From NCBI GenBank assembly GCA_964016885.1, contig OZ024740.1, forward strand, positions 442,370,001-442,434,000: DNA of 64,000 bases, written 5' to 3'. Source of the DNA: Eledone cirrhosa (lineage: Eukaryota). Position numbers and translations under genes: made by a program. The notes beneath the pieces are model-generated. The model saw nothing but the letters and a program-made list of their open reading frames with translations. It had not been told where the DNA came from and made no database searches. Positions 47-60,160 of the stretch are shown here, piece by piece (the stretch's first letter is position 1; each line of letters opens with the position of its first letter).

Positions 47-269
47 AAAACCACAGACTCTCAGATGTGAGAAAAACCTCAGACCCTCCATCTCAACTCT
101 ACTTTTGAAAAGCAGAAGAACTGCGAAACCGGTAAAGGAACCAAATAAATATATATATTTTTTTAAAAAATAAGACTCCAGTTGCATTTTCGATTTCATC
201 TTTTTTTCTTTATACTTTCACTCGTGTAGGACACTACGGTTATTTTTCATTGTGTAAAAAAAACCTCAC

Positions 270-277
<8 letters not shown>
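43..277 (+). mobile_element. Short non-coding PLE-type terminal element (family H) carrying a hammerhead, between (TA)n tracts
   Basis: Flanked by (TA)n at 1-42 and 278-336. Contains an HHR motif at 102-137 followed by AATAAA. Clearly homologous to 26131-26370. Confidence 0.65.
102..137 (+). ncRNA. Minimal type I hammerhead ribozyme, U3-A8 core variant
   Basis: CTT-TTGAAAA-GCAG(AAGAA)CTGC-GAAAC-CG-GTA-AAG: stem I CTT/AAG, stem II GCAG/CTGC, palindromic stem III ACCGGT, GUA cleavage triplet. Confidence 0.7.
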
Positions 278-339
<62 letters not shown>

Positions 340-2547: not shown

Positions 2548-4543
2548 TAAATAGATATATTTCTTTATTTGCCACAAGGGCGCAAAAAGATGGGGACAAA
2601 TACAGAGTGGGGAGTTTACATACATGCGTATAAAAAAATAGAATTAATAAAAATAACAAATAACAAATAACAATTAACAATTGAAATCCCCAACACATGG
2701 GTTGTACACACCCCGAAAACATGTACAACCCTCATCTCCAGGAGCACGTAGAGTGAGCGCTCCTTTCCTCCCTTCCTCTTTTTCCTCAACCTACAGGTTT
2801 ATATAAAGCGAAGGCCCAACCACTCGGGCCAACCTTGCCACATTCACCCACCTTTCGTAAAATTTGCTGGGGTACAGCTCCTCTCTCTCCACTCTGATTC
2901 TTCTTCTAAAATGATATTTGAAGAAGCGAACAAGTTGTTCGCCGGAGAGAAAGGTGTCTGACCTCAGCCCTTTCAGTCTCATCCGCCATATAGCCTCTTT
3001 CACCATAGCTGTTACACATAGGAAAACCGCCTCTCCTTCGTTTTTGAAGGAAAGTGGCGGTTTGATCACAGTAATGGACTCGGTGGTCAACCGGATTTGT
3101 CCCTCCCGCGACAGTAGTCGTTCTGCATAGCTCCACAGGTCGGTAACGCCCGGGCAGTGTACGAATGCGTGCGCGACGGTTTCTTCGTCCCGCACGCATC
3201 TCGGACAGATCTTTTTCGAGGGATCCCTTCCCAGGCGCCCGTGTCTGTAGAGCTTGTCTCGAACTGGTAGAGCTCCTCGGTAGCACTGCCAGGCCAGGAT
3301 CTTTTGGAAGTTGTCCATCGGTCCCGGGCGGAATGTTCTACAGAACAGACTGGCCAGTTCGTCTTGCTCTACGCCTAGAGTTTCTCCGAGAGTGTCGTCG
3401 CACTTGCTGCGGACTAACCCTTTATAGAATGACGAGGTGGAGTCTCCACTGATCGCCGGGTTCGTTTGACAGAGGACTTGAGCGCCTGAGCACATTCAAT
3501 GTGCCAGTCGCCGATTTCCTTGCTTGACCCAGGACTGGAGCTCGGTCAGCGAGACGAGTCGTGGGAAGGCTCGCCTCACGAACGGGACCCACACCGGTTG
3601 TTCGGTGAGGAACACGTGGAGGTGCCGCAGCCTGAGTGCGTGTTTGCGCATCGTCAGCCACGGCATTCCCAGCCCTCCGTTTGAAGGGTGTTGACAGCAG
3701 ATGGATCTTCTCACCAAAGGAGCCCGTTTCTTCCAAAGGAATTGGAAGAGCGCGCGCTCCATTTTGGTGAGCGTTTTACTTGGACAAGACACGACGGTCA
3801 AGCGGTAGTAGATGAAGGACGCTATGAAAGCGTTCACCACCTCCGCTCGACTTTTCAAGGATAGTTTGTACTCGGCCCACTTCTGGGCGAGCGCAAACAC
3901 CTTGGCCGTCACCTTGTTTTAGTTTTTCTCCACCTGGAGTTCCTGTCCGAACCAGACCCCGAGCAGCTTCACCGGTCCTTCAGTCCAGCGTCCGACGACG
4001 CCGTCGGAAGGCATCGGTTTGCCTCTCCATGATCCGAGTTGCAAACCGACGGACTTGTCCCGATTCAGCTTCGCTCCTGTGAACCTTTCGTATTCCTTCA
4101 GTAAGGTGTCGACTTCCTCGATTTGCGAGGTGCTCGACACCATTACTGCTACGTCGTCGGTGTAGGCCGGCGCCGCTTTCCGCAGTCCCGGTTCTAGAGG
4201 GATGCCATGCAATAGCTCCAACTTCCGTAGAAGTGGCTCGAGAGTCAGTACGTACAGAAGGGAGGAGAGAGGGCATCCATGTCGGATGGATCGTGTGATT
4301 TGGAACGGCTCCGAGAGGTAGCCATTCACCTTGACCCTTGAGCAGATGTTGCTGCTGTGTATTGCAGCAATCCCGCCCCTGAACACGGGTCCGAAGCCTG
4401 CCGCCGCGAGCACCGCATCCAGGTAACGATGGTCGACTCTATGGAATGCCTTTGACTTATCCAAATTTATCAGTGCCCCACCGAAGCCGGGTTCACACCC
4501 CACCCTCTCTACGATGTATCGCATGAGGTGGAGGTTGTCGTGT
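2548..4543 (-). mobile_element. Tx1-clade non-LTR retrotransposon, 5'-truncated copy A (RT C-half + C-terminal zinc-binding region, with stops)
   Basis: ORFs 3919-4543, 3496-3912 and 2791-3495 give LDKSKAFHRVDH, IRHGCPLS, AYTDDV, CPRC...ETVAHAFVHC. The 3' UTR ends GGCAAATAAAGAAATATATCTATTTATC. Confidence 0.9.
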
Positions 4544-4546
4544 ATG

Positions 4547-5709
4547 GATAGATAAATAGATATGTTTCTTTTATTTGCCACTAGGGCATCAAAAGTGGGA
4601 CAAGTACAAAGGGGGGAGTTTACACAAAAAGGCGTCCTCAATAAGGAGGAGGCAATAACAAAATATAAAAATAAAATAAGATATAACAAAAAATAAAATT
4701 TTTAACAAAATCCTCAATAGAGAGGAGGCGGCTTGGGGGGTCGCACACACCCCCGAAAAAAGTGTGCAACCCTTTTCCTCAGGAGCACAGAGAGGGGGTG
4801 CTCCCTCGTTCCTTCCTCTTTTCCACCTACAGGCTTATGTAAAGAGAAGGCCCATTCACACGGGCCATTCTCGCCACTTTCACCCACCTTTCATAAAAAC
4901 GACTGGGGTGCAGCACCTCTCTCTCCATCCTGATCCTTCTTCCGAAATGATATCGGAAGAAACGGACCAGTTGTTGGCCAGAGAGAAAGGTGCCTGACCT
5001 CAGTCCTTTCAGACGCGTCCACCATACAACCTCTTTCGCCATGGCTATTACGCACAGAAACACCGCCTCTGCTTCATCTTTGAAGGGGGGAGGCGGCTTG
5101 ATCATTACAATAGACTCGGTGGTCAACCGGATCGGTCCCACCCTTGACAGCAGTTGTTCGACATAGCCCCACAGATCGGCTACGCCCGAGCAGTGTACCA
5201 ATGCGTGTGCAACGGTTTCCTCGTCGCACACGCATCTGGGACAGATCTTTTTGGCGGGGTCCCTACCCGGGCGCCCGTGTCTGTAGAGCCTTTCTCGAAC
5301 GGGTAAAGCCCCTCGGTAGCACTGCCAGGCCAGGGACTTCTGGAAGTTGTCCATAGGTCCCGGGCTGAATGTCCTACCGAACAGGCTGGCCAGTTCGTCC
5401 TCCTCCATGTCTAGGGCTTCTCCGAGGGCGTCGTCGCACCTGCTGCGTACCAGCCCTCTATAGAATGTTGCGGTGGAGTCTCCACTGATAACCGGATCCG
5501 CCTGCCAGAGGGCCGTGAGCGCCTGGGCACACTCAGTGTGCCAGGCGCCCAGTTTTCTCGGTCTTTGCTTGACCCAGGATTGCAGCTCGGTGAGTGAGAC
5601 GAGTCTGGGAAAGGTTCGTCTCACAAACGAGGCCCACACCGGTTGTCCGGTGAGGAATACGTAGAGGTGCCGTAGCCTTAATGCGTGTTTACGCATCATT
5701 AGCCACGGA
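4547..5709 (-). mobile_element. Tx1-clade retrotransposon, 5'-truncated copy B (ORF2 C-terminus + 3' UTR)
   Basis: ORF 4827-5709 (PWLMMRKHALRL...CPRCVCDEETVAHALVHC). TATC repeats lie on both sides (5710-5748 and 4547-4562). Confidence 0.9.
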
Positions 5710-5869
5710 TAGATAAATAGATAGATAGATAGACAGATGGATAGATAAATTGGTAGCTTTGTTAGCCAATGAAGCAATATCTAAACCATACTCCTCCTGC
5801 TTACCATAGTATACTTACTTATGGTGCTTGTCCACAGTTATATGGCTCTAGCCAGCAAGACCTAAATTT

Positions 5870-8800: not shown

Positions 8801-9576
8801 TCGGAGAGACTCTAGGCGTCGAAGACGACGAACTCACCAGTCTGTTTGGTAGGACTTTCCGCCCAGGACCCATGGACAACTTCCAGAGCTCCCTGGCCTG
8901 GTAGTGCTACCGAGGAGCTCTACCCGTTCGAGATAAGATCTACAGGCACGGACGCCCCGGCAGGTATCCTTCCAAGAGGACGTATCCAAGATGCGAGCTG
9001 GACATTGAAACCGTCTTGCACGCAATTGTACACTACCCGGGAGTAAGTGACCTGTGAAACTATGTAGAACAACTGCTGTCGCGTATGGGAAAAATCCAGT
9101 TGATTGCCGAGTCCATAGTAAGGATCAAACCGCCAACTTCTTTCAAAAACGAAAGAGGCGGTTTTCCTCTGTATAGTGGCTATGGTGAAAGAGGTTATAT
9201 GGTGGACGAGATTGAGAGGACTGAGGACAGATGCCTTTCTCTCCGGACAACAACTCATTCCCTTCTTTAGATACCACTTTAGAAGGAGAATCAGAGTGGA
9301 GGGAGAGGCACTGCACCCCAGGAAATTTACTGAAAGGTCGGTGAATGTTGCAAAAATGGCCGAGTGATTGGGCCTTCTCTGTATATAAACCAGTAGGTTG
9401 AAGAAGAGAGCAAAAGGAAGAAAGGAGCACTTGAACAACACGCTCCTGAAGTTGAGGGTTGTTCTATCGATGGGGTATTAAACAAACCATTTGTGGCGCC
9501 TGCTCCCTATTGGGGAATCCCCGGAATGTCTTTGTTGTGTCCCCTTTTGTTGTGCGCCCTTGTGGCTAATAAAGAA

Positions 9577-9610
<34 letters not shown>
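5870..9610 (+). mobile_element. Tx1-clade retrotransposon, older degenerate copy C (ORF1 tail + whole ORF2 with many stops/frameshifts)
   Basis: ORF2 starts at ATG 6051 (MASLRVASVNVR). APE motifs LVGDWNGILD, SDHKLV and RT motifs [17 protein letters not shown] are present. Ends AATAAAGAAA(TCTA)n at 9568-9610. The 5' boundary is approximate. Confidence 0.88.
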
Positions 9611-12414
9611 TTGAAGGAAAGGGAGTTGGTAGATAGTGTAGAAGAGGCAATTAGAAGCGGCGACGTGGCCAGAGTGCTAGCGTCGAGAACGGCCCTGGGC
9701 CAGTTCTTCGACGCGAAACACGAAGGCTGCATCGTCCGAAGCAAAATACGTGCTCTGGGAAAGGAGGGGACCAAAGCTGTTAGCTGGGCCCGCGTGGCAG
9801 AAGCTAAAAGAGGGAGCAGATCCACTATCCGGTCTTTGCGAGACCAGGATGGACGGGTGATCCTTGAACCTAAGCAGATGTGCGAGGCTTTTCAAAAGCA
9901 CTTTGCCAGATTGTTCGGAAGGGGCGGGGGGCCGGTTGGGGATGTGGACTTCGGTCCATACCTCGACGGCCTGTTGTGTCTCTCGGACAGGGAGGCGAAG
10001 TCCTGCGAGGAGCCGATTTCAGCCGCTGAGATAGAGGACGTGCTGAGCCAATGCGGCAAACGCAAATCCCCGGGTCTCGATGGTCTTCCATACGAACTAT
10101 ATCTAGCTATGCCGGACTTGCTCCTCGATCTCCTCGAGGCGGTCTACTGCAACTGGCAACAGAACGGGAGAATTCCCTGTGCTGTGACCAAGGGCGTAGT
10201 CACGCTAGTGAGGAAGGACGAGAACAAGGGGGACGATATAAATAATTTCAGGCCCATAACTCTGCTAAATACAGAGTTACAGATTTTGGCCAAGGTGCTA
10301 GCAAAGAGGTTGGCGCTTGTCGTGGGCAACCTGGTGGGAGATCCGCAGACATGTGCTATCCCGTCCAGGTCCATCCACGACAACCTCCACCTCATGCGAT
10401 ACATCATAGAGAGCGTTGGGAACGAACCCGGCTTTGGTGGGGCCCTGATCGACTTGGATCAATCTAAGGCATTCGATAGGGTCGACCATGGTTACCTGGA
10501 TGCGGTGCTAGCGGCGGCAGGTTTCGGACCCGTTTTCAGGGACTGAATCAATGCCATGCACAGCAGCCGCATCTGCTCTAGGGTCAAGGTGAACAGCTAC
10601 CTCTCGGAGCCGTTCGAAATCGCGCGGTACATCCGACAGGGGTGCCCTCTCTCCTCCCTTCTGTATGTAATGACTCTAGAGCCACTGCTGCGGAAGTTGG
10701 AGTTGTTGCAGGGCATCCCGTTGGAACCGGGATTGCGGAAAGCGGTGTCAGCCTACGCCGATGACGTAACAGTAATGGTGTCGACGGCCTTGGAAATCGG
10801 GGCGATCGGCACCTTACTGGAGGAGTACGAAAGGTTTACAGGGGCTAAGCTGAACCGGGACAAGTCGATCGGTCTGCAACTCGGCACGTGGAGGGGCAGA
10901 TCGATGCCCTCCGATGGCGTCGTCGGGCGCTGGACGGAGGGCCCGGTGAAGTTGCTCGGGGTCTGGTTCGGACCAGACCTCCAGGTGGAGAAGAACTGGG
11001 GTGAGGTAACGAACAGGGTGTTTGCACTGACCCAGAAGTGGGCCGAGTGCAAACTGTCTCTGAAAGGTCGGGCGGAGGTGGGGAACACTTATATAGCGTC
11101 CGTCATCTACTACCGCCTGACCGTTGTGCCTTGCCCAAGGGAAACGCTCGCCAAAATGGAGCGCGCACTCTTCCAATTCCTTTGGAAGAAGCGGGCTCCT
11201 ATGGCGAGGAGATCCATCTGCTGTCAACACCCTTCGAAAGGAGGGCTGGGGATGCCGTGGCTAATGATACGTAAACACGCATTAAGGCTACGGCACCTTC
11301 AGGCATTCCTCTCCGGTCAACCGGTGTGGGCCCCGTTTGTGAGGCGAGCCTTTCCCAGACTCGTCTCACTCACCGAGCTGCAATCCTGGGTCAAGCAAAG
11401 ACCGAGAAAACTGGGCGCCTGGCACACCGAGTGTGCCCAGGCGCTCACGGCTCTCTGGCAGGCGGACCCGGCTGTCAGTGGAGAATCCACCTCGTCATTC
11501 TATAGAGGGCTGGTGGTTAGCAGGTGCGATGACGCCCTCGGAGAAGCCCTAGGCATGGAGGAAGACGAACTGGCCAACCTGTTCGGTAGGACATTCAGCC
11601 GGGACCCATGGATAACTTCCAGAGGTCCCTGGCCTGGCAATGCTACAGAAGGGCTCTGCCCGTTCGAGAAAGGCTCTACAGACACGGGCGCCCGGGTAGG
11701 GACCCATCGAAAAAGATCTGTCCCAGATGCGTGTGCGACGAGGAAATCGTTGCACACGCATTGGTACACTGCTCGGGCATTGCCGATCTGTGGGGCTATG
11801 TCGAACAACTGCTGTCAAGGGTGGGACCGATCCGGTTGACCACCGAGTCTATTGTAACGATCAAGCCGCCTCCCCTCTTCAAAAACGAAGGAGAGGCGGT
11901 GTTTCTGTGCGTAATAGCCATGGCGAAAGAGGTTGTATGGGGGACGCGTCTGAAAGGACTGAGGTCAGACACCTTTCTCTCTGGCCAACAACTGGTCCGT
12001 TTCTTCCGATATCATTTCGGAAGAAGAATCAGGATGGAGAGAGAGGTGCTGCACCCCAGCCGTTTTTATGAAAGATGGGTGAAAGTGGCGAGAATGGCCC
12101 GTGTGAATGGGCCTTCATTCTACATCAGACTATAGGTGAGGAAGATGAAAGACCAAGGGAGCACCCCTTCTCTGTGCTCCTGAGGAGAAGGGTTGCACAC
12201 TTTTTTTCGGGGGTGTGTGCGACCCCCCACGGCGCCTCCTCTCTATTGAGGACTTTGTTATAAATTTTATTTTTTGGTATATTTTATTTTATTTTTATAT
12301 ATTGTTATTGCCTCCTCCTTATTGAGGACGCCTTGTTTTGTAAACTCCCCCCATTGTACTTGTCCCACTTTTGATGCCCTGGTGGCAAATAAAAGAAACA
12401 TATCTATTTATCTA
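9611..12414 (+). mobile_element. Tx1-clade retrotransposon, 5'-truncated copy D
   Basis: Begins directly after the (TCTA)n tail of copy C. RT motifs KSPGLDG, FRPITLLN, QGCPLS, AYADDV and a C-terminal CPRC/HC are present. The 3' UTR ends AATAAAAGAAACATATCTATTTATCTA. Confidence 0.92.
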
Positions 12415-15472: not shown

Positions 15473-18400
15473 ATAGATCAATTGAGAGTTGGCTGTTTGA
15501 ACGCGCGTGGCCTGGGCTCAGCTTGGAAGCAAGCAAAGCTTCTAAGTGACCTCAGGTCACAAAGTATAGATGTGATGGTTGTTTGCGAGAGTCGGATCAG
15601 CAGCGTGAGACAGCTGGCGCCCGCCTTCGATGACTTTGAGATGCACGCATCTCTCTGTCAACCCGGAGGCGGGGGGGGGGGGGGGGGGTTGCCGTACTGC
15701 TGGATAAACGTCTGACTCTCGACGTACAGATTGTTCACTCGGACCCCGGGGGTCGATTACTGGTGCTGGACGTCGGAGGCGGTGAAGGCGGGGCTTTCAG
15801 ACTGGTCGGTCTTTATGCTCCCTTCGGGGCGGAAAGAGCCGACTTCTTCCAGCGTCTGGAGACTTTTCTAGGAACGTCGCGTTCCCTGCTTTTAGTGGGG
15901 GACTGGAATGGAATCCTAGATGCGCGTTGGGACTATGCAGGGGCATGTCCCGATAGAGGGGGGTGTAGCAGCCTCAAGGGGTTACTCGATCGATTCGACC
16001 TGGTCGATAGATTTCGACTAGATTGTCCAACTGCGCCAACCTGGACCTGGGCAAACCGCAGTGGACAATCTAGATCGTACCTAGATAGGTTTTTGGTTAG
16101 GAGTAAGGATAGGGACGTATTTAGTTGTCCAGAACTGATCATGGTTGGCTATTCAGATCACAAATTAGTGACCTGCGTGGTCAACCTTGATAGAACGCAT
16201 AGACAGGGTCCCGGTTACTGGAAGATGAACTTGTCCTTGCCGACAAAGAAAGATTACAGGAACCGGATTAGTAGCTTAGTTAAGATGCGGTTGACGGGAG
16301 CGATCGTCAACAGTAGGTGGTGGGTATCTCTAAAGAGAGAGATTAGAGTAAGTTCGATAGGTTACAGTAAGGAACTAGCGGCGAATAGAAATAGGAAGGA
16401 AAGGGAGTTAACAGATAAACTAGAAGAGGCGATTAGGAGCGGAGACGTAGCCAGAGTGTTAGCGGCGAGAACGGCGTTGAGCCAGTTCTTTGACGCGAAG
16501 CACGAAGGCTGCGTTGTCCGAAGTAAAATACGTGCTTTAGGAAACGAGGGGACCAAAGCTGTTAGCTGGGCCCGCGTGACAGAAGCCAAGAGTGGGATTA
16601 AATCCACCATTCGGTCTTTGCGAGACCAGGATGGACGGGTGATCCTTGAACCTGAGCGGATGTGCGAGGCCTTTCAAAGGCACTTTGCTCGACTGTTCGG
16701 AGGGGGCGGGGGGCCGGACGGGGATGTGGACTTCGGTCCATACCTCGACGGTCTACCGCGTCTTTCGAGCGGCGAAGCGGAGTGCTGCGAAAGGCCAACC
16801 ACAGCCACTGAAATCGGGGAAGCGCTCAGCCAATGCAGCAGACGCAAATCTCCGGGTCTCGATGGTCTACCATACGAACTTTTTTTAGCTATGCCGGTCT
16901 TGTTCTCCGAACTCCTCGAGGCTGTCTATTGCAACTGGCAACAGAACGGGAGAATTCCCTGTTCTGTGACCAAGGGCGTGGTCACGCTAGTGAGGAAGGA
17001 CGAGAGCAAGGGGGACGACTTAAGTAACTTTAGGCCCATAACTCTGCTGAATGCAGAGTTACAGATTTTGGCCAAGGTGTTGGCGTAGAGGTTGGCGCTT
17101 GTGGTGGGTGGTTTGGTGGGAGACGCGCAGACATGCGCTATCCCGTCCAGGTCCATTAACGACAACCTCCACCTCATGCGATACATCATAGAGAGGGTTG
17201 GCAACGAACCCGGCTTTGGTGGGGCCCTGATCAACTTGGATCAATCTAAGGCGTTCGATAGGGTCGACCATGGTTACCTGGATGCGGTGCTAGCGGCGGC
17301 GGGCTTCGGACCCGTTTTCAGGGGCTGGATTTCTGCCATGCACAGTGGCAACATCTACTCTAGGATTAAAGTAAACGGCTACCTCTCGGAGCCGTTTCAA
17401 ATCACCCGGTCCATCAGACAGGGGTGCCCCCTCTCCTCCCTTCTGTACGTATTGACTCTCGAGCCACTGCTGCGGAAGTTGGAGTTGCTGCGGGGCATAC
17501 CCCTGGAACCGGGATTGCACAAAGCGGTCTCGGCCTATGCCGACGACGTAACAGTAATGGTGGAGGACGCCTCGGAAATCGGGGCGATCGCCACCCTACT
17601 GGAGGAATACGAAAGGCTGACGGGGGCTAGGCTGAACCGGGACAAGTCAGTCGGTTTGCAACTCGGAACGTGGAGGGGCAAACCGATGCCGTTAGACGGT
17701 GTCGTCGGGCGGTGGACGGAGGGCCCGGTGAAGCTGCTCGGGGTCTGGTTCGGACCGGACCTCCAGGTGGAGAAGAATTGGGGCGAGGTGACGAGCAGGG
17801 TGTTTGCGCTGACCCAGAAGTGGGCCAAGTGCAAACTATCACTGAAAGGTCGGGCAGAGGTGACGAACGCTTACATAGCGTCCGTCATCTGCTACCGCCT
17901 GACCGTCGTGCCTTGCACCAAGGAAAAGATCACCATCATGGAACGCATGCTCTTCCAGTTCCTCTGGAAGAAGCGGCCTCCCATGGTGAGGAGATCCATC
18001 TGCTGCCAGCACCCTTCGAAAGGAGGGCTGGGTATGCCGTGGCTGTTGATGCGTAGGCACGCATTGAGGCTACGGCATCTACAGGTATTCCTCACCGGTC
18101 AGCCGGTGTGGGCCCCGTTTGTGAGGCGAGCCTTCCCACAGCTCGTCTCGCTCACCGAGCTGCAATCCTGGGTGAAGCAAAGACCGAGAAAACTGGGCAA
18201 CTGGCACACCGAGTGTGCCCAGGCGCTCACGGCTATCTGGCAAGCGGACCCGACTGTCAGTGGAGAATCCACCTCGACATTCTATTGAGGGCTGGTGGAT
18301 AGCAGGGGCGACGACACCCTTGGAGAGTCGCTAGGCATGGAGGAGGACGAACTGGCCAGCCTGTTCGGTAGAACTTTCGGCCCGGGACCCATGGACAACT

Positions 18401-37495: not shown

Positions 37496-37551
37496 ATATA
37501 TCAAATAATAGTTAAGCCGGAATTATTTCATCATAATTGTTTATTGCATAT

Positions 37552-37635
<84 letters not shown>

Positions 37636-37899
37636 GGAAAAAATGAAACGAAATTTCATTTCCCACTCTTAGTACGGCTGTTACTTAAATATAAGTGTGT
37701 ACACGTACATACATATATGTATACAGACGTACAGTAGTATGTATATATATATATACATACATGCACACATATATATATGTACGTATGGATTCACCGAACA
37801 TTTATTATAATGCTCGGTGTGTTTGCAAACAAACATCCCGTATTAAGCCGTAGTGTCCAGCAACCATCGTTGCTCGTTTGTTCAACACTGACAAAGGAA

Positions 37900-37940
37900 C
37901 GCTGTACTAGTTTCAAGCTTATTAGCTATCGTCAGCAACG
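37900..37940 (-). ncRNA. Minimal type I hammerhead ribozyme (family A, inverted copy, intact core)
   Basis: Reverse complement reads CGTTG-CTGACGA-TAGCT(AATA)AGCTT-GAAAC-TA-GTA-CAGCG. Confidence 0.82.
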
Positions 37941-38208
37941 TATACCTTCCTGCCTGATTGTTGACGTATACCTTCCTGCCTTATGCATATTAACGGCTGA
38001 GTAGCCCAATTTGCATATCGAGTGGGTTAATCGGCAGGGGGCACCGAAAACGATAATATACATACTACTGTACGTCTGTATACATATATGTATGTACGTG
38101 TACATACTTATATTTAAGTAACAGCCGTACTAAGAGTGGGAAATGAAATTTCGTTTCATTTTTTCCGTTTATCGTTTTCGGTGCACCCGGCCGATAAACC
38201 CACTCGAT

Positions 38209-38256
38209 ATGCAAATTGGGCTACTCAGCCGTTAATATGCATAAGGTAAGTATATA
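38209..38256 (+). promoter_or_regulatory. Putative snRNA-type promoter: octamer + TATA (family A)
   Basis: ATGCAAAT at 38209-38216 and TATATA at 38251-38256, just upstream of the HHR. The same spacing occurs in family B. Confidence 0.5.
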
Positions 38257-38283
38257 CGTTCAACAATCTGGCAGTAAGGTATA

Positions 38284-38324
38284 CGTTGCTGACGATAGCT
38301 AATAAGCTTGAAACTAGTACAGCG
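38284..38324 (+). ncRNA. Minimal type I hammerhead ribozyme (family A, unit 1, intact core)
   Basis: Stem I CGTTG/CAGCG, core CTGACGA, stem II AGCT/AGCT, GAAA, palindromic ACTAGT, predicted cleavage after 38319 (GUA). Confidence 0.85.
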
Positions 38325-38714
38325 TTCCTTTGTCAGTGTTGAACACATGAGCAACGATGGTTGCTAGACACTGGACGGCTTAATTCGGGATGTTTGTTTA
38401 CAAACACACCGAGCATTATAATAAATGTTCGGTGAATCCATACGTACATATATATATATGTGTGCATGTCTGTATATATATATACATACTACTGTACGTC
38501 TGTATACATATATGTATGTACGTATACATACTTATATTTAAGTAACAGCCGTACTAAGAGTGAGAAATTTCATTTAATTTCATTTTTTCCGTTTATCGTT
38601 TTCGGTACCCCGGCCGATTAACTCACTCGATATGCAACTTGGGTTGCTCAGACGTTAATATGCATAAGGAAAGTATATACTTTCAGACGTTCAATCATCT
38701 GGCAGGAAGGTATA

Positions 38715-38755
38715 CGTTGCTAACGATAGCTAATAAGCTTGAAACTAGTACAGCG
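38715..38755 (+). ncRNA. Hammerhead ribozyme (family A, unit 2) with core mutation G5>A
   Basis: Same as 38284-38324 but the core reads CTAACGA. Confidence 0.7.
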
Positions 38756-38961
38756 TTCCTTTGTCAGTGTTGAACCGATCAGCAACGATGGTTGCTAGAC
38801 ACTGTACGGCTTAATACGGGATGTTTGTTTGCAAACACACCGAGCATTATAATAAATGTTCGGTGAATCCATACGTACATATATATATGTGTGCATGTAT
38901 ATATATATATATACATACTACTGTACGTCTGCATACATATATGTATGTACGTGTACATACT

Positions 38962-39014
<53 letters not shown>

Positions 39015-39507
39015 TAAGTTAAAAAAATTACATCTACATATGCATACTGAAATACTAGTGTGTATATGAATACACACACGTATACATATGTATATGTAAC
39101 AAGTCTTTCACTGGTTGCTTTACTGTGAGCACCCAGCTATTCTGTATGTAAACACACAGACAAACCGGTTTTTAGAGTCATACTGGTTTTTGAGGGAACA
39201 CCTTCCCTCTATTCTCCAGAAAGCCAGACAAGGACTCTAAAAACCGGTTTGTCTGTGTGTTTACATACAGAATAGCTGGGTACTCACAGTAAAGCAACCA
39301 GTGAAAGACTTGTTACATATACATATGTATACGTGTGTGTATTCATATACACACTAGTATTTCAGTATGCATATGTAGATGTAATTTTTTTAACTTAATT
39401 GTTTAAGCGTCAGTCATACAAAAGTGAGTTACAAACGAAACGAAATTTAATTTCGTTTCGTCATTTGTTTTTATCGTCTCCGCTGAACCAGTGCGTACTC
39501 ACACTCT

Positions 39508-39555
39508 ATGCAAATTAGTCTGCCCACTACTAATTTTCATAGAAAAAGCATATAA
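39508..39555 (+). promoter_or_regulatory. Putative snRNA-type promoter: octamer + TATA (family B)
   Basis: ATGCAAAT at 39508-39515 and TATAA at 39551-39555. Confidence 0.5.
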
Positions 39556-39600
39556 CGATAAGTGCTTTTACAATTCTCCAGAAAGGCCGGTAGATAGGTA

Positions 39601-39645
39601 AATGTTGCTGATGAGTTGAAACATCAACGAAACTAGTTCAATATT
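39601..39645 (+). ncRNA. Type I hammerhead ribozyme (family B)
   Basis: AATGTTG-CTGATGA-GTTGA(AACA)TCAAC-GAAAC-TA-GTT-CAATATT: 7-bp stem I, 5-bp stem II, palindromic ACTAGT, GUU triplet. Confidence 0.9.
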
Positions 39646-39836
39646 CCTTGTCTGGCAATTCAACTTTTCAAATACAATTCGATGTTGTACGGTATGTCAA
39701 ATCTATTTATCTATAAAACTGTTTATATTGTATTTTGTCTGAGGAAGGCATAGCATATTGTTAATATGATATCCCTGAAATATATATAATGAAATAAATA
39801 TGGTTTTATAAATATAGTTTCCATTTATTTAATATC

Positions 39837-39876
<40 letters not shown>

Positions 39877-39883
<7 letters not shown>

Positions 39884-40373
39884 TAAAAAAATAATGAATA
39901 AAACAATGAAACAGTTCCTTATATTAAACAAAAAAAGTTCATTATTTAACGATCGTTTCTAGGATATATATGTGTTAGAATTGGCATGCATATTCAACAG
40001 ATCTATGTACAAAATTATACAAAATTATACAAATTATCAAAATTAAATATACACACCAAACACATATATATGCCGTCTTCAGAAATCTTTATTTCTGAAG
40101 ACGGCATATATATGTGTTTGGTATGTATATTTAATTTTGATAGTTTGTATAATTTTGTATAATTTTGTACATAGATCTGTTGAATATGCATGCCAATTCT
40201 AACACATATATATCCTAGAAACGATCGTTAAATAATGAACTTTTTTTGTTTAATATAAGGAACTGTTTCATTGTTTTATTCATTATTTTTTTAATATTTT
40301 ATCTTGACTCTGTATTCCGTTTATCTTTCACCGAAAGTGATTTTTCATTGCATCTCTTCTTTCCATGATATCC
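39877..40373 (+). mobile_element. Family C fold-back element with long-stem-II hammerhead (cut by the gap)
   Basis: ~210-bp inverted arms 39877-40086/40091-40300. CTGAAGA at 40095 and GAAACGATCGTT at 40218. Confidence 0.75.
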
Positions 40374-40573: not shown

Positions 40574-41207
40574 GTATATGTGTGAGTAAATGAATGTGTG
40601 TGTATATGTGTATGCGTATTTTATCTGTAGTTTGTGGACATACAGAGACATTAGCCTTGAATTTTTGTATTTACATACATCTTTTTGGCATGCGTATGCA
40701 TGTGAATATATATCTTTATGCATATCTATGAACGAAGTTAATTACATATATACACACACCTAACTGTATAAACTTTTTGTATTTCATTGGTCAATTTGAA
40801 CTCTGTTCCCAAACAGACTTGTAATTTTGAATTGTTGTTATTATCAATAAATATATTTCATTATTTCTGAAGACGGCATATATATGTGTTGGTATGTATA
40901 TTTAATCTTGATACTTTGTATAATTTTGTATAATTTTGTACATAGATCTGTTGAATATGCATGCCAATTCTAACACATATATATCCTAGAAACGATCGTT
41001 AAATAATGAACTTTTTTTGTTTAATATAAGGAACTGTTTCATTGTTTTATTCATTATTTTTTTTATATTTTATCTTGACTCTGTATTCCGTTTATCTTTC
41101 ACCGAAAGTGAAATTTCATTGCATCTCTTCTTTCCATGATATCCGGATTACATTGAGTTCTTCATACGGATTGGACACTACCGTAAACTCTTGGTAGATT
41201 TATCTAC
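40574..41207 (+). mobile_element. Family C PLE-type terminal repeat element
   Basis: 40860-41143 matches 40089-40373. The 3' end TTGGTAGATTTATCTAC joins (TA)n. Confidence 0.7.
40857..41010 (+). ncRNA. Hammerhead ribozyme motif with ~115-nt extended stem II (family C)
   Basis: 10-bp stem I TTCATTATTT/AAATAATGAA, core CTGAAGA, long imperfect hairpin (ATATATATGTGTT/AACACATATATAT), GAAAC-GATC-GTT. Confidence 0.68.
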
Positions 41208-42520: not shown

Positions 42521-48056
<5,536 letters not shown>

Positions 48057-48073
48057 CATATATATATAAATAC

Positions 48074-48126
<53 letters not shown>

Positions 48127-48128
48127 CT

Positions 48129-48196
<68 letters not shown>

Positions 48197-48372
48197 TATA
48201 TATACATATATATATATTGTTATACTTTGGGAGGGTCATGTTGCCAATAAGAAACACACGCACCAGTTGCTTTCACTTCAATTTAATTTATTATATATTT
48301 ATAAATTTACAAATTTATAAATTTCTGGTTGGTTGGTTGGTTCCACAACCAGATAGTTGTTTATATATATAT

Positions 48373-53953: not shown

Positions 53954-56900
53954 TCAGGATTTGGGCACCATGGCCCATTCGAGAAGAGAATTACTGTTTG
54001 CGGAGACATATCCGGGTGTGGGTGGTTTGTCCGGGATTACTTGGAGGAATTTGTCCAAAGACTTCTTGAATTTTGTGTGGTCAGTTTCTGTTTTGACGTG
54101 TCCTGGTGTGATGTTGAAGAGAGCAGGGCCGATTGAGGTGAAATAATTGTGCCGTATTGTTGTTATGAGTTGCGATTTAGATTTTTGAATGGGACGGATA
54201 GCACGGGGCCCAAGCCTTGGGTGTATCTTGAAGGCGATGCCAACATCATTTGGGCAGTGATGATGGAACATTTTCCACATCATGCAGATAATATAACGCT
54301 CACGGCGACGTTGGAGTGAGTAAAGTTTCAGGTTTTCTAATCGACCCCAGTAGTCAAGGTCTGACATGCCATCTATCTTTTTCGTGATCGCCCTTTGAGG
54401 AGCTTCAAGTTTCATGATACTTTGTTTCGTGTGGGGAGACCACAGTGGACAACAGTATTCAAGGTGTGGTCGGGCAAAAGTAGAGAAGAGAAGGATAATG
54501 GTGCGGGAATCTCTCGACTGAAAGGTTCTGAGGATCCAGGAACACATTCTGCGGGCCATGTCAACTTTGCTGCTTATATGCGTGGTCCAGCTTATGTTGC
54601 TGTCCACGGTTACTCCCAAGTCTCTGATGTTGTTAGATGCCACGAGAGTTTCCCCGGAGGGAAGGGAGTACGGGAGTTTCAGAGCATCCTCTTTTCCAAA
54701 GTGGATCAGTTCGAATTTGTCTTCGTTCAGTAACATGTTGTTCTTTTCCGCCCATTGAGTAACAGCCAGTAGGTCTGACTGAAGGCCTATCCGGTCATCC
54801 ACGCCATTGATGACCTTTTGGAGCTTGGAATCATCAGCGAAAATTTTAATGTTGCTGTGTTTGATGATGTCAGTGATGTCATTAATATAGATGATGAAGA
54901 GAAGTGGGCCCAACACAGTGCCTTGTGGGACCCCACTACTGACTTTGGCTGGGCTGGATTTGACTCCCTCAACTACAACATGTTGGGTTCTGTTTGACAG
55001 GAAGCTCTTGATCCACTGCAGCAGCTTTCCAGTGACACCAATATTGGACAGCTTTCTCAGTAGAATGTTATGATCAACCCTGTCAAAGGCCTTGCTGAAA
55101 TCAAGGTAGATAACATCAGTGTTGGAACCCTCTCCCAAGGCTCTCAAAATGTCATCAAAGTGATGCAGTAGCTGCGTCAGGCAATCCCTTCCATTACGGA
55201 ATCCATGCTGGTTGGAGTTCAGCATATTGTTACTCTCAAGGAAGTGGGTCATTCGCGATCTCACCACTCTCTCAAATACCTTAATGATATGAGAGGTGAG
55301 TGAGATTGGACGGTAATTCACGGCAAGGGATTTGTTTCCCTTTTTGAAAACTGGGACAACAGACTGGGATAGAAGGTTTTCTGGCACATATCCAGCATCC
55401 AGTGAGTTCCGCCACAGATTGGCAAGAGGAGATGCAAGTTGGTGTTGACACGCCTTCAAGACACAAGCAAGGAACCTATCGGGACCTACTGCTGAATTAT
55501 GCTTGATTTCCTTTATTGCCGCCAAGACATCAGGGCGCCAAACGTTGTCCGATAAGGTGTAATGGGGAGTAACATCGCCGATACAGCCCAGATCGGCCAT
55601 ATCAGGATTGCTGAAAACAGAGCAGTATTGTTTCTGCAGTATCTCACCCATGGTTTTAGCATTGTCTTGAAGAGTGCCATTTTCATCAATTAGAGGGCCA
55701 ACAGTAGAGCCAGTGATTTTGTGTTTTTTTGCAAAGGAAAAGAACACTTTGGGATTGAGTTTGATCTTCTCAATGGCCCAGGCCTCTTCAGCTCTTCTCT
55801 GATTGTTGATGAGGGACATTATGTTGTTTTGGAGGTTATGTTTTTTAATCTCTAGTGATGAAATGGCAGTCAAGTTGATGTGTTGCTGCTGAAAGTATTT
55901 CAGCTTGTTGATTTTTTTTGTTCGTTCTCTTAATTTTTCTGATGAGCGTTTTTCTATTTCTAGAGATTCTGCTCTTAGATTTGTTTATAGTTCTTAATGG
56001 GGTGTGTTTAGCACATATGTTTGTAACAGTGTCCACAAATGTCTGCCAGGACTTTTTGATGTTAGTGGGTGTATGAGTGTGCGTGAAGGACCAGTCGACA
56101 TGTGCAAGATCATGACTGATCGCTTCCCAGTTTGCATTGTGGAAATCCATAGCGTCAAACGGATGGACAGGAGAGATGACATTGGGTTTGTATATTGGAC
56201 GGTGGAATCTCAGATCACAGAGAACCATGTCATGATCAGAGAGTAGAGTTTTCTCCACTGCAATATAGTGGATATTGTCAGTGTGATTGCTGAAAATTAA
56301 GTCTAGGACGTTTTTGTGGCACCTCGTTGGTTCGAGCACCAGTTGGGATAGGAAGAAATCATCCATGAAGTCAAGAAGCGATTCTACAGCTTCCCTGTCA
56401 GAGGTTGAGGCAGAAGAACCTGGTGGCAGGCTGTTTGTGGACCAGTCAACTCCGGGGAGGTTGAAGTCCCCCATCATTAAGATGTTGTCAGGGTGACACT
56501 CTTGGATGAAACACTTTATGCTGTTGAGGCATTCCTTGAAGCATGGTACAGGCGTTTGGGGTGGCCTATAGAGCCCAACTACTAATAGGTTGTTGGTTTG
56601 ACTGAATACAGTGACTGCCTCACAGTATCCATTAGTGAATATGTTCATAGCCTCTGTTGAGAAAGAATTATGGACATAAATGGCAGTTCCGCCCTTTCTT
56701 CTGCCAGCGCGATCAGCACGGATGGCTTTGAAATTTTTCACTTTCACCTCGGCTTCCAAGTGGAGGTTACTGAGATGGGTTTCAGTGAGGACGAAGAAAG
56801 GGATGTGGTTTGGATGGACATCAATCCAGTCCTCCAGGAATTTGATCTTCCATTTTTGAGTATTGGTGGAAGGGCTGATGCCTTGGGCGTTAAGCAAAAA

Positions 56901-57089
56901 TGTAGAGGCGAGAGTGGATGGTTTCAATTGTTTTGGTGTGTTGTTAATTTGTTTGTTTGTTAATGGCAGCAATGGGAGTTTGTGCAGTGGGGTGATAGTG
57001 GAGGGTGGTGCTGGGTGATAGCTCGAATGTTTTTTTCCAGTACTTTTGCCAAATTCATTATGGCTAAAAAAGAGGAAGAAGTTTCCTGT
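53954..57089 (-). pseudogene. CR1-group ORF2 (APE-RT), one frameshift near 55915
   Basis: ORFs 55845-56972 and 53954-55873 together match copy 1 ORF2. The frame is open upstream to TAA at 57090-57092. Confidence 0.9.

Positions 57090-58529: not shown

Positions 58530-60160
<1,631 letters not shown>

Follow-up and report, generated by a model that had tools for sequence, protein, structure and literature searches.

We propose that the hammerhead ribozyme (HHR) repeats of families A and B, which lie within a 64,000-nt stretch of Eledone cirrhosa DNA (the window; contig OZ024740.1), carry a small promoter inside each unit, in which an octamer block, a YCA core and a TATA box, spaced as in the host U3 and U13 genes, form a working snRNA-type promoter that is probably read by RNA polymerase II (Pol II). 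Comparison with host genes makes it likely that each A/B unit holds a working promoter of this type, whichever polymerase reads it. Since the layout of the repeat is that of host U3 and U13, each unit likely switches on its own transcription.

The region at 37632-39656 consists of one A copy in inverted orientation, a tandem pair of A units and two B copies placed head-to-head, with (AT)n runs at its bounds. All blocks described in an earlier sequence-only reading of the window could be located, with the octamer ATGCAAATT at 38209 (A) and 39508 (B) and octamer-to-TATA distances of 42 and 43 nt, respectively. Octamer block and TATA box lie, as had been suggested, inside the tandem unit, at a spacing that is fixed across unalignable families. 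A further block, TAAT...CATA, is indeed present, but it pairs with the octamer block in a hairpin, of which the octamer block forms the 5' arm and TAAT...CATA the 3' arm. The features are, by coordinates and strand:

37548-37632: (AT)n run, joined by the 3' end (hairpin + T6 + CCGTTT) of the inverted A1 copy
37632..38055, minus strand: family A1 copy, head-to-head with the plus-strand copy
37905..37935, minus strand: hammerhead core of the inverted A copy
38006-38017, minus strand: octamer block of the inverted A copy, intact
38056..38479, plus strand: family A1 unit of about 424 bp, first of the tandem pair
38140..38172, plus strand: family A 3'-terminal hairpin GAAATGAAATTTCGTTTC + T6 + CCGTTTAT, the main A integration end; AATTTCGTTTC at 38147, T6 at 38159-38164
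38208..38219, plus strand: family A octamer block TATGCAAATTGG; host form TATGCAAAT[TG]AG
38225..38229, plus strand: family A YCA core TCAGC, at -56 from the predicted start
38251..38257, plus strand: family A TATA box, 42 nt downstream of the octamer A; start predicted near 38281
38283..38325, plus strand: type I hammerhead A, core CTGACGA..GAAACTAGTA at 38289-38319
38480..38966, plus strand: second A unit, A2 type, ending at the alternative end, TACTTATAT joined to (AT)n
39007..39205, minus strand: partial family B copy, head-to-head with the plus-strand copy, ending at AACTTAATTG joined to (AT)n
39206..39656, plus strand: family B unit, which stops after the ribozyme (genomic unit 465-470 bp)
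39385..39404, plus strand: family B internal T7 + AACTTAATTGTTT, the first B integration end
39435..39474, plus strand: family B 3' hairpin + GTCATTTGTTTTTAT, the second B integration end; AATTTCGTTTC at 39449, T5 at 39468-39472
39507..39518, plus strand: family B octamer block TATGCAAATTAG, identical to the host U6b, tRNA-Sec and U13 blocks
39524..39528, plus strand: family B YCA core CCACT, at -57 from the predicted start
39551..39556, plus strand: family B weak TATA box (TATAAC), 43 nt downstream of the octamer A; start predicted at 39580/39581
39601..39645, plus strand: type I hammerhead B, core CTGATGA..GAAACTAGTT at 39608-39638

In the inverted A copy a local duplication stands in place of the TATA box and the cassette is damaged, and in the second A unit the block is mutated to ATGCAACT (38631-38642) and the ribozyme core to CTAACGA (38720-38726). 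LINE reverse transcriptase (RT) ORFs in the window were considered and set aside as unrelated to the ribozyme repeats.

Hammerhead A comprises a 6-bp stem I, a 4-bp stem II closed by a T.T mismatch and a palindromic ACTAGT stem III, with an extended stem I from 38258 to 38345 and predicted GUA cleavage after 38319; hammerhead B has a 7-bp stem I, a 5-bp stem II, the same ACTAGT stem III and predicted GUU cleavage after 39638. Cleavage may be weak in view of the T.T closure of stem II in A and the GUU site in B. Rfam gave no match at gathering threshold over the whole window; at E-value level the B ribozyme was the sole ribozyme match in the window (Hammerhead_HH9, 33.2 bits, E 5.8e-6, under the gathering score of 52), with that of A absent and all others being (AT)-rich miRNA noise. 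The type I core, stems and palindrome recur in A, B, D, E and one of two C copies, with stem sequences that differ, and a short palindromic helix III is described in parts of PMC4209133 as typical of metazoan type I HHRs acting as dimers.

Both families are genome-wide tandem repeats with units of 420-484 bp (A) and 465-470 bp (B), arrays of up to about 30 units, a GC content of 0.36-0.37 and no ORF, the longest stop-free frame being 113 aa in A and 60 aa in B. In circular folds of seven units the raw paired fraction is 65-69%. The combination of block, TATA and HHR core has 31,782 matches genome-wide compared with 0 for a reversed control, and exact matches number 11,207 for an A body 24-mer and 1,183 for a B body 22-mer. 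The genome holding the window measures 3.0 Gb. The two families had been described as differing in most of their sequence, which does not hold for the cassette, where A and B are 62% identical in alignment (z=10.4) and must be regarded as relatives. Due to this homology, cassette sharing between A and B alone is weak evidence.

Families C to G were first picked by a host-spacing pattern that contains the block (130 matches, control 0); C, D and E were re-examined with promoter-blind anchors, and F and G are known from the block-containing pattern alone. With the promoter-blind anchors, the block (at most one mismatch) was found upstream in 14 of 25 D, 17 of 23 E and 9 of 25 C loci, the remainder being mostly 5'-truncated or decayed copies. 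By alignment E is a clear relative of A, and between D, C or F and A/B the block alone aligns (0.92-1.0), with flanks at z of at most 2.7. The block is thus the only sequence common to A/B and otherwise unalignable ribozyme families, which supports the idea of an snRNA-type promoter. Octamer-to-TATA spacing is 42 in A, 43 in B, D and E, and 47 in C and G.

Host small-RNA genes were fetched through Rfam without the block as query, with the exception of U13, which was found by motif pattern and turned up in a search for distal element plus block. TATG[CG][AT]AAT[TG]AG lies at -76..-78, with TATA 46-48 nt later, in all seven host U6-class loci, namely three independent U6 promoters, U6atac, MRP and both tRNA-Sec genes; 25 of 48 U6 matches were fetched, retrocopy-like loci being without block, and one of eight fetched U6atac loci has a promoter. 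In host U3 a variant block with 1-3 mismatches was observed at -71..-74 in all four distinct promoters tabulated, with spacings of 42, 42, 42 and 40 and an A start. Eight of nine U3 loci have no T5 run and one ends in T7, a tenth fetched locus having been excluded because it has no promoter. Host U13 (49.7 bits, above cut-off) displays the exact block at -75, a spacing of 44, an A start and no T5 run. The exact block was not found in host U1, U2 and U5 promoters, and an early reading of the block as exclusive to Pol III genes was dropped after it was found in U13 and, as a variant, in U3. A 12-nt block matrix, built from five host promoters only, gave 14.7 for the A unit of the window (reached by 1 of 300 shuffles) and 18.7 for B (0 of 300), compared with at most 10.1 in upstream regions of host U1, U2 and RNase P.

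The block TATGCAAAT(T/G)AG and the TATA box match host small-RNA promoters in sequence and position, which supports the snRNA-type promoter put forward by the sequence-only reading, and the similarity to host genes that it predicted was found in the U6-class, U3-variant and U13 promoters. The host distal element TTACCTCCCTT, located near -250..-285, is not part of the units: distal element plus block has 21 matches genome-wide, as against more than 30,000 cassettes.

With the predicted +1 set 30 nt after the TATA box, on which the YCA position depends, the element block falls at -72/-73; 16 nt further on, at -56/-57, A, B, D and E have the YCA core. The core reads TCAGC in 25 of 31 (A), CCACT in 39 of 41 (B), TCACC in 13 of 15 (D) and TCAGC in 12 of 16 (E). 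Among host genes, 14 of 16 U1/U2/U3/U5/U13 promoters have it at -55..-58 and none of the seven U6-class promoters does; it reads TCAGT in U1, U2 and U5, TCATT in U3 and CCAGT in U5 variants. Element cores differ at 1-2 bases from the host consensus TCA[GT]T, and a YCA-type core occurs at about 1% of positions within units. We infer that it represents a candidate PSE core. A, B, D and E display the host U3/U13 layout (block at -71..-75, TATA 40-44 later, YCA at -55..-58), and A and B lack the U6-class combination of a spacing of 46-48, a start 76-78 after the block and no YCA at -56. The U6-type geometry assumed earlier therefore does not apply, host U6-class spacing being 46-48 and that of A/B 42-43. 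Likewise, the TATA box had been taken as the determinant of Pol III, but TATA or TAAATA is present at -28..-35 in 15 of 16 host U1/U2/U3/U5/U13 promoters, with TATA-like boxes near -30 also in U1, U2, U3 and U5. TATA does not mark Pol III in this host, because the Pol II-type promoters have it as well.

Given the U3/U13-like spacing and the YCA core, and with TATA also present in host Pol II-type snRNA promoters, we consider it more probable that the A/B promoter is read by Pol II than by Pol III. Host U3 and U13 are themselves presumably Pol II genes, judging from human and yeast U3 and from the lack of T-runs; according to parts of PMC7277114, U3 is transcribed by Pol II in yeast and humans and by Pol III in plants. 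It should be noted that geometry is no proof of polymerase, since host RNase P, despite its U1-like geometry, ends in T9, host 7SK combines TCAGT with T8, and one U3 ends in T7. TATA-anchored matrices gave -19.2 (A1) and -30.4 (B) for the window units with the U6 class and -11.8 and +1.1 with the U3 class, a weak matrix of five promoters in which two of five leave-one-out scores are strongly negative; A1 of the window is negative on all three promoter-class matrices. Families C and G meet U6-class spacing and score best on the U6-class matrix, and C has a T/G step at 77 in most copies read. With respect to the size of the shift, sections of PMC7949045 report that human U6 is inactivated by a 5-bp spacer change, and sections of PMC4227766 describe a 4 bp spacing difference between Drosophila Pol II and Pol III promoters, where, however, the PSEA sequence decides.

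Insertion ends were mapped in loci chosen by body motifs only, with distances measured from the cut site. In B, 3' ends lie at +222..232 (19 of 46) and +299..301 (20 of 46), in A at +272..276 (21 of 49) and +216..228 (20 of 49, a few possibly inside AT-rich body), and nearly all meet (AT)n in a TTAT-like overlap. In A, the main end is at least 6 nt beyond T6. The oligo-T block, previously linked to Pol III termination, is accordingly an integration end joined to (AT)n, and it is absent from family D, where the copies read have no T5 run. Units that continue past the T-run keep T6 in 69 of 79 cases (A) and T5-T12 in 114 of 115 (B), with T7 or longer in 30. Pol III would consequently have to read through T-runs inside continuing units, a cost that arises for Pol III only.

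The 5' ends spread over the whole unit and through the cleavage site, and of 56 B ends only 2 come to within 3 nt of this site. Because a linear cut-to-cut template would stack 5' ends at the cut site, the template was probably a circle or an uncut multimer, and regeneration by tandem or circular copying, as suggested from the window alone, fits the fixed 3' ends and the 5' ends running through the cut site. Head-to-head inversions were flagged by script in 41 of 56 B 5' ends, a few of them spurious via (AT)n. A start-site peak was sought, in a test set beforehand, among (AT)n-flanked 5' junctions, and none was observed there: these junctions follow microhomology, with 3 of 14 B places at the predicted +1 and, in A, 1 of 31 places among the first 100 of 466 junctions. 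A slight enrichment of 5' ends in the interval 30-60 nt ahead of the cut site was noticed post hoc and is given no weight.

The cassette could alternatively be a Pol III promoter of the U6 type (type 3), the T-run ending most transcripts and rare read-through RNA being copied, a reading that we consider unlikely but the most serious competitor. It would explain that the exact block occurs in every U6-class locus and is missing from U1, U2 and U5, and it gains from the U6 geometry of C and G, from the lack of any run of four or more T over the 260 nt that follow the cut site in A1 and A2, from TCAGT promoters that can end in T8-T9 (RNase P, 7SK), and from schistosome HHR repeats, which are Pol III-transcribed in the account given in sections of PMC6765202. 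The spacing of A/B is, however, 4-5 bp under that of every host U6-class gene, the YCA core sits at the Pol II-type position, and the predicted start is mostly a C/A and not a T/G step. Moreover, insertions reach 6-13 nt past the T-run in A and at the first B end, the D copies read have no T5 run, and B arrays contain internal T7-T12.

A second alternative, which appears improbable, treats the block as the remnant of a host promoter once captured and retained for the sake of RNA structure or RT recognition, with passive transcription of the repeats within other Pol II transcripts. Block and TATA each sit in hairpins, and in a comparison of seven families with seven host loci the promoter regions of the elements folded better than those of the host (p=0.009), which suggests that the promoter segment is probably part of the RNA and makes a structural explanation possible as well. 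This alternative would also account for the missing start-site peak and distal element. Within families, the block had been expected to be better conserved than its flanks, and it is not (A 0.050 vs 0.046/0.049, B 0.009 vs 0.008/0.010), though this test is weak by design because copies decay neutrally; in addition, 5 of 38 A cassettes read TATGCATATTGG, a mutant octamer, among them one whole array. Against a relic, the partner strand of the hairpins changes between families, while block, the core 16 nt after it and the 42-43 spacing remain constant in A, B, D and E, and the TATA-to-HHR-core distance, which is not a promoter distance, varies from 38 to 57 nt across families. Structure by itself would not keep host promoter sequence and geometry. 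Least probable is that A and B are solo or tandem pseudo-LTRs (pLTRs) of an autonomous Penelope-like element (PLE), with the cassette as promoter of that element. The (TA)n target, inverted pairs and palindromic stem III would fit, and PLE ORF pieces adjoin B in two loci (L032, L055) and A in one (L007). However, among 20 copies of the PLE family at L032 the query copy alone is followed by B, most of the rest having a tail of their own that lacks the block and bears another ribozyme-like motif, and the ORFs at L055 and L007 run antisense to the unit beside them. A sense-flanked RT/GIY-YIG ORF as in a PLE pseudo-LTR was found in 1 of 20 copies of the one PLE family examined.

We infer that a PLE may mobilise A and B. 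Sections of bioRxiv 10.1101/2021.04.23.441226 give (TA)n targeting and inverted copies as traits of PLEs. One PLE family ends in ..TTCATTTCCTTT joined to (AT)n (also written ..GTATTCATTTCCTTT joined to (AT)n), and one B array is joined head-to-head to a 5'-truncated PLE ORF. With the HHR-bearing pLTRs of PLEs, as portrayed in parts of PMC4209133 and of that preprint, A/B have in common (TA)n targeting, tandem and inverted insertions, a palindromic helix III and a similar pyrimidine-rich 3' tail. In contrast to those pLTRs, no ORF is attached to A/B and the block is absent from the PLE family examined, and stems I and II, of 6-7 and 4-5 bp, are those of a canonical type I HHR instead of the min-HHRs ascribed to PLEs in these sources.

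In the Pol II model that we favour, transcription would begin some 72-73 nt past the octamer, which is 40-60 nt ahead of the cut site, and would cross the T-runs to enter the next unit. A unit-length RNA that carries the promoter near its 3' end would be released by two ribozymes, probably paired through the palindromic stem III, and a host ligase would close the circle. A Penelope-like RT/endonuclease would then nick (TA)n, prime at UU(U)AU just after the 3' hairpin and copy round the circle, rebuilding promoter-ribozyme-promoter arrays, so that the promoter would be passed on with each copy. As a more tentative scenario, a ribozyme superfamily may have captured an octamer-proximal host promoter, of which C and G keep the U6/Pol III spacing (47) and A, B, D and E the shorter U3-type 42-43; the 4-5 bp shift would have brought Pol II and freedom from T-run termination, and allowed the elements to multiply to more than 30,000 units that express themselves and produce circles.

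A and B fit tandem hammerhead repeats of the non-LTR retrozyme type. With the retrozymes characterised in sections of PMC7229834 they share short AT-rich tandem units, one type I HHR, no ORF, a self-paired predicted circle and PLEs as proposed mobilisers; retrozyme RNAs are given there as about 170-400 nt, compared with A/B units of 420-484 bp. Those sections report retrozymes as abundant circular RNAs and name no promoter, whereas A/B, known from DNA alone, offer a host-matched promoter layout and mapped integration ends.

An HHR repeat with an internal snRNA promoter is a concept already known from newt satellite 2, and schistosome repeats also have an internal promoter. The newt satellite 2 promoter reportedly has an octamer plus PSE. 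According to parts of PMC2220036 and PMC6765202, which cite Coats, Zhang and Epstein (1994), newt satellite 2 uses an snRNA promoter and is transcribed by Pol II. Both systems are HHR tandem repeats with an internal snRNA-type promoter, a probable one in A/B, with Pol II in the newt and, judged by sequence, Pol II as the likelier polymerase in A/B. A/B differ in their invertebrate host and in the host U3/U13 layout including TATA, and their group in its number of families (at least five to seven), part of which have U6 geometry, and in its dispersed PLE-type insertions. The schistosome Sm-alpha/Sj-alpha HHR SINE-like repeats are transcribed by Pol III, with the promoter at the 3' end of the cut RNA (sections of PMC6765202); there, as proposed here for A/B, each unit is driven by the one upstream of it, which makes tandem copies necessary. 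In contrast to these repeats, A/B have an external snRNA-type promoter: a tRNA search gave 0 tRNA in 7 loci, and no B box was found in four units, with loose A-box pattern matches only, which does not point to a tRNA-SINE. The compact human H1 promoter, as depicted in parts of PMC7949045, resembles A/B in placing the octamer beside PSE and TATA within about 100 bp, and by this comparison dual polymerase use is possible.

In the literature searched, which covered few subscription journals, no report of this promoter in cephalopod HHR repeats was found; supplements of PMC7229834 and PMC4209133 could list such repeats. What is added here is a sequence-defined, host-matched promoter layout that more than 30,000 units carry and for which a start base is predicted. 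With sister families of either polymerase geometry at hand, retrozyme drive and the relation of spacing to polymerase become directly testable, and A/B/D/E vs C/G would, if the proposal is true, constitute a natural polymerase-switch experiment within a mobile element. As a by-product, the analysis yielded a host snRNA promoter grammar for the U6, U3 and U1 classes, which is useful for guide-RNA vectors.

Promoters of host small-RNA genes, taken from loci fetched from the same genome (L061-L063, L086-L109, L110, L118, L189-L191, L195-L201, L433 and L439-L447), could be sorted into classes by type and position of the 12-nt octamer-containing block. U6, U6atac, MRP and tRNA-Sec carry the exact block at -77 relative to the transcription start, U3 and U13 a variant block at -71 to -75, and U1, U2, U5, RNase P and 7SK only TCAGT. 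A distal TTACCTCCCTT-like element at -250 to -285 is common to many of these promoters. The RNase P RNA gene (L189:1492-1841) displays U1/U2-like promoter geometry, yet T9 at the gene end. We additionally observed, in an invertebrate, a stand-alone U13 snoRNA gene (L433:1328-1436, minus strand) that possesses both a distal element and an octamer block of its own. Within the U6 tandem array, units L067 and L068 hold a SINE-like insertion in the TATA region, with the block displaced to -270.

The same block is carried by the further hammerhead (HHR) families C, D, E, F and G (L149-L188, L343-L417), with 78, 1,351 and 369 exact anchor matches for C, D and E, respectively, and with differing stem III palindromes (ATCGAT, ATGCAT, ACATGT). 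In an A-family array near 9.97 Mb of G000:C1 (L232-L239), units have ATGCATAT in place of ATGCAAAT. The block is absent from other HHR-like motifs (L008:590-690; L034:2499-2590; L043, minus strand) and is therefore not universal among the HHRs of this genome. One Penelope-like element family (L203-L222) features two alternative 3' ends and a 3' repeat with an HHR-like motif of non-standard core (TTGATAA...GAAACGTACGT).

L418:1500-1950 (plus strand) combines a distal element, the exact block and, at a distance of 42, TATA; the sequence downstream contains neither a ribozyme nor an Rfam match. This locus is a candidate for an unknown host small-RNA gene, or the layout arose by chance.

In the window, B is directly followed by a loose CTGAGGA..GAAA motif and then by a palindrome of 428 bp. 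Two additional occurrences of the palindrome arms elsewhere in the window mark another inverted-pair repeat family (39739-39784, 39875-40302, 40858-41144, 58696-59276). The window also contains LINE-type endonuclease/RT ORFs:

2791-5780, minus strand, LINE-type endonuclease/RT ORF
9482-11839, plus strand, LINE-type endonuclease/RT ORF
15640-18288, plus strand, LINE-type endonuclease/RT ORF
44977-48219, minus strand, LINE-type endonuclease/RT ORF, open 1080-aa frame with both domains
53954-57089, minus strand, LINE-type endonuclease/RT ORF
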